43,549 nucleotides of DNA from Octopus sinensis (Eukaryota), in assembly GCF_006345805.1 (NCBI RefSeq), contig NW_021831848.1, positions 1 through 43,549 of the forward strand, read 5' to 3'. Numbering within the stretch: the first letter of the stretch is position 1; each line of letters starts with the position of its first letter. Below the pieces are notes generated by a model, which had not been told where the DNA came from, made no database searches, and worked only from the letters and a program-made list of their open reading frames with translations. The translations under genes were made by a program, and so were the position numbers. Of this stretch, positions 298 through 4,865 are shown one piece after another.

Positions 298-331
298 AGT
301 TGAAAAAGTCTCAATGACTGAAACCGGTACT
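298..331 (+). ncRNA. Type-I hammerhead-like motif with U3-A8 core variant
   Basis: AG-TTGAAAA-AGTC tcaat GACT-GAAA-CCGG-TA|CT. Stem II AGUC/GACU, palindromic stem III ACCGGU, GUA site, stem I only 2 bp. AT-rich tail runs into (TA)n. Confidence 0.55.
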
Positions 332-634
332 GAAATGTTTTTTATAAAATTATTTTATCATTTTCTATCTTGATATTTTTTTCCATATATATACATATAT
401 ATATATATATATATATATATATTTGTTGAAATAGAAAGATGAATTTTCTTGTTACAGATTATTCAAAAGTTTAACCGATACCTGGGTAGCAAAAATCACA
501 CCAGAAAAAAGCACGGTTGGAGATAAGACCATTTGGTGTTGCAACCGTGCGTTGGTGCGGATAATTGAAGTTTAATATTATTAGTGAATGGAAGAAATGG
601 AGTTGAACGAAGATTGTACAGAATTCCTTTTATT

Positions 635-714
635 ATTTTACACATGTTTCAAGGCCACAAATTCCAATTCTGATTAAATAAGGGTACCATATTGTGGCTT
701 TCTCTTCAGAAAAA
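635..714 (-). ncRNA. Type-I hammerhead ribozyme (left arm)
   Basis: Minus strand: TTTT-CTGAAGA-GAAAGCCACAA...TTGTGGCCTT-GAAA-CATGTG-TA|AAAT. Confidence 0.75.
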
Positions 715-830
715 ACAGGAATTCCGTTGACAGAACAAAAAAACCGAGGCGCAGCAACGCAATTCGTCCTCGTTCGAATTGCGTTGCTGCGCCTCTTTTT
801 TGTTTTGTTCTGTCAACGGAATTCCTGTTT

Positions 831-912
831 TTTCCTGAAGAGAAGCCACAATATGTGACCCTTTTTAATCAGAATTTGGAAAAATTTGTGGCCTTTGAAA
901 CATGTGTAGAAA
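831..912 (+). ncRNA. Type-I hammerhead ribozyme (right arm)
   Basis: TTTC-CTGAAGA(835-841)-GAAGCCACAA...TTGTGGCCTTT-GAAA(897-900)-CATGTG-TA|GAAA. Stem I UUUC/GAAA. Stem III ACAUGUGU is self-complementary with two G-U pairs. Predicted cut after 908. Confidence 0.8.
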
Positions 913-1066
913 TAATAAAAGGATTCTGTACATCTTCGTTCAACTCATTTCTTCATTCCTAATTATATAAATATATATATATATATTATATATTATATAT
1001 ATATATCTATATATATATATATATATATACAATAATACAAACATAGCACATATACATATATATATA

Positions 1067-1920
1067 GGCAGAGGCGTTGTTATGTGGTTAAGAAGCTTGC
1101 TTCCCAAAAGTGACCTATAAGAATGTTGGTGTTAGATTCAGTGCCACTGCTCTTCTACTCTAGCCCCGGACTGCCCAAATCCTTGATACTGGATTTGGTA
1201 GACGGAATGTGAAAAGAAGCACATCGTGTGTGTGTGTGTGTGTGTGTGTGTGTGTGTGCGTGCGTGCGTGCGTGTACGTGCGTGCGTGTGCGTGCATGTG
1301 CGTTGTGCGTGCGTGCGTGCGTGCGTGTGCGTGCGTGCGTGTGCGTGTGTGTGTGTGTGTGTGCGTGCGAGCGTGTGCGTGCGTGCGTGTGCGTGCGTGC
1401 GTTGCGCGTGCGTGCGCGTGCGTGCGTGCGTGTGCGTGCGTACGTGTGCGTGTCTTTGTGTTTGTCACTCACCCCCGATTGACAACCAGTGTTGGTTTGT
1501 TTACGTCCGTGCATCTTGGCGGTTTTGGCAAAAGAAAGCGATAAGACTGAATACTGCGCTTTTAGAACGCAACATAAATATTAGGGGGCTGAAGGCGGCG
1601 AGCTGGCAGAATCGTTAGCACGCCGGGCGAAATGCGTAGCCGTATTTCGTCTGCCATTACGTTCTGAGTTCAAATTCCGCCGAGGTCGACTTTGCCTTGC
1701 ATCCTTTCGGGGTCGATAAATAAAGTACCAGTTACGCACTGGTGTCAATGTAATCGACTTAATCCCTTTGTATGTCCTTGTTTTTCCCCTCTATGTTTAG
1801 CCCCTTGTCGGCAATAAAGAAATAATAAATATTAGGAAGTGGATTTGTTTAAATAAAACCCTTCAAAGCCCAGCAAGGCCTCTACCCAATGACAGACACA
1901 AGTGAAAGACAATAGAGAAT
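1067..1920 (+). mobile_element. tRNA-derived SINE (family 2, internal TG microsatellite) interrupted by a family-1 SINE
   Basis: Head GGCAGAGGCG...TGTGGTTAAGAAGCTTGCTTCCC, body GGATTTGGTAGACGGAA and GACAACCAGTGTTGGTTTGTTTACGTCC, all similar to 17909-18332. Confidence 0.75.
1594..1824 (+). mobile_element. tRNA-derived SINE (family 1)
   Basis: GGCGGCGAGCTGGCAGAA...GAGTTCAAATTCC (B box)...AATAAAGAAATA, highly similar to 9034-9266. Flanking direct repeat ATAAATATTAGG at 1574-1585 and 1825-1836. Confidence 0.9.
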
Positions 1921-3832
1921 AAATGTTCTAGAGTTATTCAATCATATAATTTGTTCGCTGCGACCAAATATATAGTTTCCATAAATAGTTTTAATATTTC
2001 GCAGCAAAATAGATCAGCAGCAATCTTGTCGTCATGTATTCAGTAAAACAATCCCGTACTAAACTTACATGCAGATACATAAATATCTGACATTGTGGCT
2101 ATGTTGAAAGATCGTTATAGTTTCTAATAATAAAAAAACGAAACACTTCTTTTCAGTCCAGTATTCTTGTCATCCATTAATACCAATGTATATCTTTAGA
2201 TAAAGAAAATGTCCGAGAAATCTGTCAAACCATTACTATATTTTTGCGTGTGCGTGTGTGTTGTGTGTGTGTGTTTGGTGTGTGTATGTTCGTGTATCAT
2301 GTATGTCGTATCTATCTATCTGTCTATTCATTATTTATCTGTTTATATATATATATATATATATTATATATATATAATATATATATATATTATATATATA
2401 TATAATAGAGAGAGAGGAGGGATTCGAAGAGAGCATCACGTTGTTTTGAAACTTTAACATCAGTCTGATAAAGCGCTTATAGTTGTCATGGGTTCAACGG
2501 AACATGTCTAGCAGGCCAACAGACACGCACACACACACACACACACACACACACAAACAAGGGTGAGAGCGAAAGAGAGACCCATGTATGTCAGTGCGTG
2601 TGTGCGTATATATATATATATAATATATATATATATATATATATATATATATATATATATATATATATATATATATATATATATATATATTTGATTTGCA
2701 TGCATACATATCTAGTTATGTCTTTGTTTTTTCTATAATCTGAACTATATATATATATATTTACAGATAAAGAATATACACGAATATAGGTATATTTGCC
2801 TGTGTTTCTACCGATCTATTTAAATCTATATCTATCTATGTATCTATCTCTCTATCTATCTATTATACTATCTATGTATGTATGTGTATATATATATGTA
2901 CATACATATCATACATGTATATATATATATATATGTATGTATGTATGTGTGTTTGCATGTGTGTGTATGTGTGTATATATAGATGTGTGTGTGTGGGTGC
3001 GCGCGCGTATATATATATATATACACAATATATGTATATATGGTATAAATATATATATGCATGTATATATGTGTGTGTATATATATATAGATATATATAT
3101 ATATATATATTAGTATATATATATATATATTATTATGTAGGTATGTACATATATGTATGTGTATAAATGCATATGTTTTTATATTGTTTATATTATTATA
3201 TATATAAATATATATACATGTATGTATGCATGTAGGCAGAGAGCGGGAGAAAAATATACGCGCACACACACACACACAAACACACACTCACTCACACACG
3301 CGCATGCATGCACGTACGCGCGCACACACGCAGACTGCCTCTGCCCCTGCAAAAGCCATTAGATCCCTTAGTTCAGGGGCAGCATAGGATTGGTACATAA
3401 CCAATCATGTTTTGCTAAGAACACTTAGTCTCACTTAGGGGTCACAGGGGTATGAAACGGATCATATTGCATTCCATTCTGTACATGTCTGGAGACCCCT
3501 TATTTGGGTACTTTTTTTACGGGTGGGGCGGAAATAGGGTATTAAAGGAGCTCTAAGTGGGGTCTATTAGATCTGGAATGGAAATATTAGAAAGGGAGGG
3601 GTAGGGGCAAAAATAAAACAAGAACAACAACAGAAACAACAATAGGAGCACCGACATTGACAACAATAACAACAGCTATGATAACAATAAACGACAGTAA
3701 CAAGGACAACAGCAAGAACAAGAATGTTATGGCAGACAACGAGTTGTTGATCCAACAAAAGTCTATTTACGGATTTACAGAAAAGGTCAGAATATGGCCT
3801 TTGTATATTTTTCATACATACGTGTGTTTGTG

Positions 3833-4000
3833 TAGATAGAAAGATAGATTGATAGAAAGATAGATAGAAAGATAGATAGATAGATAGATAGATAGATAGA
3901 TAGATAGATAGATAGATAGATAGATAGATAGATAGATAGATAGATAGATAGATAGATAGATAGATAGATAGATAGATAGATAGATAGATAGATAGACAGA
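3833..4000 (+). repeat. (GATA)n microsatellite
   Basis: Long, near-pure GATA array. Confidence 0.95.
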
Positions 4001-4001
4001 T

Positions 4002-4590
4002 ATGTTTCTTTATTAGCCACACAGGGCTGCACACAGACGGGACAAATTACAAGGTAGAGCTTTTCTTTTGGGGGATAAAAAAAGGGGGTTTGATTTTCGA
4101 TCAAAAGGGATCGTAAAAGGAAAGAAAGAGGAAAGCAAGAAAAGGGGGGGAATAAAAATAAAAGGATGAAGAAAAAATCAATCAATAGGGATCGTTATCA
4201 CAGAAATGTCAATATAAAGTGTAAAGGGGAAGACAGGTGAGGTTTACCCGTGGAAAGAAAAGCCTACGGAAAAGACCACGGTAACCTCGGTTAATGAAGT
4301 CACAAATAAGTAACTCTCTGTATTAAATTTTTACGGTTCATAGGATCATACTCTAGGTGGCTTCGTCATTCATACGTGCCATCCTTGCTACATTCACCCA
4401 TCTTTTTTAAAAACATTCACTAGACAAAACTTGCCTCTCTACTCTCACTTTCCTTTTCAAGTGATACTTGAAGAAGTTGATGAGAGACTGACCAGAGAGG
4501 AAAGTGTTTGTCTCCAATCCTTTCAGACGCGTCCACCAGATACATTCTTTCGCCATAGCCACAAGGATGATAAAAATAGCTCTTCCTTCC
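4002..4590 (-). mobile_element. Tx1/L1-like non-LTR retrotransposon 3' fragment
   Basis: Minus translation ...AIFIILVAMAKECIWWTRLKGLETNTFLSGQSLINFFKYHLKRKVRVER... resembles the ORF2 C-terminus of Tx1-type elements. 3' UTR ends AATAAAGAAAC directly into (TATC)n. Confidence 0.6.
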
Positions 4591-4830
4591 CAGAAAGGAG
4601 TCAGGTTTAAAAAAGGGGCCTTTTTAAATCTGTCTCCTTTCTGTACACATATTTATTTCCCGCCCAAAACCTAAACAGTTATCTCCCTTACACACATCAA
4701 TAACAATAATAACAACCAATTACCTCCCTTTACTTGTCAACTTGTAAAATCATTCACTCGTGAATTTCATTACAAACAACATGGACCAAATTTCTTAAGA
4801 AAAAATATATATTCATATAAATTAAACATT

Positions 4831-4865
4831 ATATCATGAATAGCGATTGCGAAACCAGTCGATAT
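4831..4865 (+). ncRNA. Type-I hammerhead-like motif with A3-U8 core variant
   Basis: ATATC-ATGAATA-GC gatt GC-GAAA-CCAG-TC|GATAT. Perfect 5-bp stem I, 2-bp stem II, GUC site. Tail runs into (TA)n at about 4921. Confidence 0.6.

Follow-up and report, generated by a model that had tools for sequence, protein, structure and literature searches.

The C3–G8 pair positions the general acid of the hammerhead ribozyme and is part of the usual search patterns for it. A natural U3–A8 pair, likewise a compensated change of C3–G8, was described by Perreault et al. in 2011 (PMC3088659), and the variant has also been reported in Penelope-like elements (PLEs), with about 1,300 matches in Schistosoma mansoni (PMC4209133). 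The closest described systems are the minimal type I hammerheads of these PLEs, and the motifs analyzed here resemble them in their type I order, in the short palindromic helix III region, in the repeat position behind an RT/GIY-YIG ORF and in the inverted copy pairs (PMC4209133). Unlike those hammerheads, one of our families has an A3–U8 core, which does not occur in the text of that article's supplementary file 2, a helix II of 2 bp and no extra base between positions 9 and 10.1. Whereas section 8 of PMC3088659 names only U3–A8, this family has a purine at position 3 and a pyrimidine at position 8 and forms a lineage of many copies. We found no natural A3–U8 in the literature and supplements searched, a coverage that was incomplete and without figures and is thus weak evidence of absence; the A3–U8 lineage is a rarely seen natural core variant.

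The DNA analyzed, hereafter the window, is an entire contig of 43.5 kb (43,549 nt) from Octopus sinensis, whose 2.72-Gb genome contains many microsatellites. An earlier note on this DNA had placed three hammerhead-like heptamers in it, and direct reading of the window located them as described: TTGAAAA at 300–306, ATGAATA at 4836–4842 and, on the minus strand, TTGATAA at 22812–22806. As RNA, the cores read UUGAAAA, AUGAAUA and UUGAUAA, and searches for CUGANGA would miss them, as the note had pointed out. In all three, a stem II hairpin comes next, with GAAAC after it. U4 G5 A6, A9, G12 A13 A14, A15.1–U16.1 and H17 occur in type I order, and the consensus C3–G8 is replaced by A3–U8 or U3–A8 with Watson–Crick complementarity retained. 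The features are as follows.

298–332, plus strand: motif 1, minimal type I hammerhead with U3–A8 (34 of 39 aligned copies); core 300–306, helix II 307–310/316–319, GAA 320–322, palindromic ACCGGT 323–328, A17 329
118–426, plus strand: 5′-truncated Penelope-like 3′ end carrying motif 1, up to a (TA)n tract (span of homology)
4830–4866, plus strand: motif 2, minimal type I hammerhead with A3–U8 (pattern and aligned copies); helix I 4830–4835/4861–4866, core 4836–4842, helix II GC-GAUU-GC 4843–4850, GAA 4851–4853, ACCAGT 4854–4859 (ACCGGT in the family), predicted cleavage after C17 at 4860
4608–4929, plus strand: 5′-truncated 3′ UTR/terminal repeat of the A3–U8 Penelope-like family, then (TA)n (span of homology)
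22770–22815, minus strand: motif 3, type I hammerhead arm with U3–A8 (27 of 31 aligned family arms); core 22812–22806, helix II GUGC-CAAC-GCGC, decayed helix III, C17 at 22773
22751–22880, both arms: palindrome of about 130 nt with two head-to-head hammerhead arms, folding as one hairpin

The three motifs are not chance matches, each being a member of a genomic family; the families are large, and motifs 1 and 2 lie at the tail of Penelope-like retrotransposons. Among the 39 aligned copies of motif 1, 34 carry U3–A8, 2 carry U3–G8 and 3 could not be parsed. Helix I, which has 6 bp in motif 2, has only 2 bp in motif 1; 25 copies have AGAG (2 bp, the window's subfamily) and 9 have ACAG (3 bp). 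The relatives at loci L045, L046 and L168–L171 have a PLE ORF upstream, that of L169 matching RVT_1 and GIY-YIG, and L168–L171 also have inverted 5′-truncated partner copies. Genome-wide, U3 cores of any kind before GAAACCGGT gave 4603 matches versus 114 in the reversed-pattern control, and 98 of the 100 matches listed were U3–A8 (counted by eye). Motif 3 is a member of a U3–A8 family of hammerhead palindromes (L062–L089). Its plus-strand partner arm is decayed and reads UAGAUGA, and the two arms together are predicted to form one hairpin of −72.1 kcal/mol. The family's palindromes, about 130 nt long, are centered a few bases upstream of U3, so that helix I is cut to 3 bp; this center may reflect a stall of reverse transcription immediately beyond the ribozyme, followed by folding back. 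The parent element was not found among 20 distinct loci, one of which (L075/L078) has PLE-like RT matches about 1 kb off and not tied to the motif.

For motif 2, a 201-nt query returned 1307 candidates; the 40 that were scored showed 93–98% identity, the window itself excepted. The aligned copies share ATC ATGAATA GC GATT GC GAA ACCGGT C GAT. With positions 3, 7 and 8 of this context left free and the reversed pattern as control, we found 148 exact copies versus 0. Among the 100 of these 148 matches that were listed, 94 were A3–U8, 3 G3–U8, 2 C3–U8 and 1 A3–A8, and none, counted by eye, was C3–G8. When any loop II was allowed within a GC-NNNN-GC helix II, U8 was kept in 32 of 32 non-A3 copies, which thus represent single decay changes, and a C3–G8 sister with the helix II of motif 2 was not found. 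A looser pattern, any A3 core before GAAACCGGT, matched 1341 times versus 279 in the reversed-pattern control, with U8 in approximately 88 of the 100 matches listed and with subfamilies varying at N7 and loop II. In contigs from public runs filed under four organism labels, read for variants at the listing thresholds, positions 4836 and 4841 each show a single letter among the matches listed, and loop II varies in the same contigs. The helix III region of the family, ACCGGU, is self-complementary (6/6 pairs, −8.3 kcal/mol); in the window's copy, a private change at 4857 (G>A) leaves 4/6 pairs and no duplex, so that the dimer palindrome is broken.

Cores with other letters at position 3 were also searched. 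C3 cores before GAAACCGGT gave 1124 matches, and C3–G8 made up only 11 of the 100 listed. Another 75 of those 100 were a chance motif within an antisense LINE reverse-transcriptase stretch, so that copy number alone is no proof; this apparent C3–U8 family lacks helix I and was rejected as a ribozyme. One such antisense C3–U8 hammerhead-like motif lies in the window itself, at 30348 on the minus strand, within a broken LINE reverse-transcriptase gene (29103–31590). No G3–C8 family was seen, with G3 cores matching 92 times versus 70 in the control.

Longer copies of motif 2 carry a single-frame ORF with an RT, a cysteine-rich CxxC linker and a GIY-YIG domain, and its end lies about 290 nt upstream of the hammerhead core. 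At locus L121, where an ORF of 634 aa is followed by the core 289 nt downstream, the profile scores are 28.6 bits for RVT_1 (cut-off 29.6) and 28.8 bits for GIY-YIG (cut-off 22.6). Inverted 5′-truncated partner copies are found at L125, L127 and L128, and the window retains only the last ~320 nt of the element, beside (TA)n. Judged by its predicted protein, the host has the anatomy of an endonuclease-bearing (EN+) PLE. It resembles the Neptune/Nematis-type EN+ PLEs in the RT, the cysteine-rich linker and the C-terminal GIY-YIG, and also in the inverted 5′-truncated copies and the microsatellite flanks (PMC8557442), a tentative assignment to this type following from the CxxC linker.

The earlier note had taken the joint, complementary changes at positions 3 and 8 as a sign of selection. 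The three motifs cannot carry that argument, as the window copies are damaged and selection is visible only between master lineages; a comparison of subfamilies does support it. We retrieved an older subfamily by its upstream DNA only, with no ribozyme in the query, and compared it with the young set, which had been retrieved with the ribozyme included. Excluding the query, 26 of 29 older copies are A3–U8. Across 267 aligned upstream columns (a further 59 are gaps), the majority letters of the two subfamilies differ in 85. Within the 37 ribozyme positions they differ at 7: N7, two bases of loop II, the two members of a helix I pair, where the change is compensated (A–U > G–C), and two outer bases of helix I. 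The conserved core bases show zero differences (for 13 positions to stay unchanged at the rate of the flanks, P is about 0.007). A3–U8 is the majority state in both the young and the old subfamilies, whose ribozymes changed only at tolerated positions. Other helix I variants of the lineage are compensated as well (AUC/GAU, GUC/GAC and GCC/GGC), and additional copies show GCC/GGC and A17. These patterns suggest that A3–U8 was likely kept by selection on the ribozyme. U3–A8 and A3–U8 being the family majorities (34/39, 27/31, 94 of the 100 listed and 26/29), the collected homologues bear out both as consensus states, and their interpretation as private mutations of a C3–G8 family fails.

In protein trees, the A3–U8 lineage forms one clade with a support of 99 among 15 rows and 71 among a noisier 31 rows, the smaller tree having been made by removing L189, whose ORF belongs to a different upstream element, and 15 other rows, mostly short. 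The neighbors of the clade carry U3–A8, which makes a swap from U–A to A–U the simplest reading, although the tree is unrooted and does not itself give the direction of the change; as the seeds were found by core patterns, lineages with a lost core would be missed. In the sister sequences L161–L167, both C3–G8 and U3–A8 are present within the same helix I/II frame. An anchored count found Watson–Crick 3–8 pairs in 18/18 copies versus 7/18, 7/18 and 3/18 in slid controls, which illustrates the pattern and is no test of it, as the copies were hand-picked and the U3–G8 family was left out; in the MAFFT alignment the core was out of register, making a pair count on it uninformative. The U3–G8 family (L159, L160, L229 and L230) is a related, old PLE family with a GC-AAU-GC helix II, a poor helix I and U3–G8 in 3/4 copies. 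Its ribozyme is possibly degenerate, and its spread indicates that a Watson–Crick 3–8 pair is not always needed for spreading.

The explanation that we prefer, with a probability of roughly two in three, is that motifs 1 and 2 are truncated terminal-repeat hammerheads of PLEs, A3–U8 being the inherited and likely selected state of one lineage whose ribozyme is predicted to cleave as a dimer. Two copies in one tandem transcript, or in two transcripts, would pair through the self-complementary ACCGGU and form a helix III of 6 bp, in keeping with the dimer model proposed for PLE minimal hammerheads (PMC4209133). A3 would pair with U8 as C3 does with G8, to judge from their conservation, and the RNA would be cut after C17, perhaps slowly or with help of the element's protein. 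A3–U8 would have arisen once, probably from the U3–A8 state of the neighboring lineages. From its sequence, the lineage likely self-cleaves; energy folding does not give a hammerhead for the monomers, and the predicted minimum free energy structure for the dimer of a family copy is not the active dimer. Przybilski and Hammann are said to have found in 2007 that any Watson–Crick 3–8 pair is tolerated in some backgrounds.

Alternatively, the fold could have been kept for a purpose other than cutting, with A3–U8 catalytically weak or dead and conserved as a signal for protein binding or reverse transcription. We consider this unlikely, yet it has several findings on its side: PLE minimal hammerheads are poor at cleavage (PMC4209133), a PLE hammerhead was active only with its protein, and insertion in vitro took place without its cleavage (PMC11167929), and the U3–G8 family exists. 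Abundant and successful PLEs without hammerheads have also been described (PMC8557442). Moreover, the earlier note's premise that compensatory swaps retain activity depends on context, as in one scan of a type III hammerhead only the G–C swap rescued activity and other double mutants in the region were low (PMC9901934); a G3–C8 family was not found in this genome, even though G–C is the best-rescued swap in vitro. Against a purpose other than cutting stands the distribution of changes: the conserved positions are those needed for catalysis, and variation falls where it is tolerated, at N7, in loop II and at H17 (either C or A). So does the report that the active conformation is the only one in which the 3–8 pair forms (PMC3884650).

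A neutral origin, in which a master element gained two complementary changes in a dead ribozyme and then spread, is improbable. A3–U8 does represent a single evolutionary event, one third of double-change outcomes are complementary, and the LINE motif demonstrates that chance can produce a look-alike in high copy number, but the core is unchanged at 32% flank divergence and helix I has changed in compensated pairs. Finally, although loose hammerhead descriptors also match chance sites in the window (13 rows, 30348 among them), it is very hard to regard the three motifs as chance matches or assembly errors given the large families, the reversed-pattern controls at or near zero and the identical letters in independent sequencing runs. 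An Rfam scan of the window gave no hammerhead among the matches listed (150 of 303), only microsatellite noise, and an evenly spaced sample of 600 kb gave 2 matches versus 0.8 in shuffles, too few for use.

Under the preferred explanation, inherited and selected A3–U8, the retention of the pair through about 30% flank divergence provides evolutionary support for the 3–8 pair, and the related elements with C–G, U–A and A–U form a ready series for studying what makes each of these pairs tolerable in a ribozyme. The lineage is also a test case for whether PLEs need ribozyme cutting. A census based on CUGANGA would undercount, considering the U3 and A3 matches found before GAAACCGGT and the small share of C3–G8 among the C3 matches listed. 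A more far-reaching proposal, to which we would give slightly less than even odds, is that an old lineage of several subfamilies has an active purine-3/pyrimidine-8 hammerhead, derived from C–G via U–A, and that non-canonical cores far outnumber C3–G8 among the CCGG-loop minimal hammerheads of this genome. If true, standard descriptors miss most of the ribozyme class in the genome, and from the A3–U8 lineage one could learn which surroundings, or which protein partner, permit this pair.

The window contains further hammerhead-like sequences. A perfect head-to-head pair of C3–G8 hammerheads lies beside (TA)n at 10967–11073 (cores at 11033 on the plus and 11007 on the minus strand), in a layout as in motif 3; their helix II has an A–A mismatch at its base. 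At 20154–20188 on the plus strand, a canonical minimal hammerhead consists of CUGACGA, an extra base, GAGC-UCC-GCUC and GAAACGU A, and has relatives at L238 and L274. A long inverted repeat at ~620–960 contains CUGAAGA (836) with no GAAA partner and is possibly another PLE end. At 37371 on the plus strand, UUGAAUA ... GAAAC has a helix I of 5 bp and a possible helix III, but combines U3–U8 with an irregular helix II. The plus-strand repeat at 1585–1830 resembles a tRNA-derived SINE.
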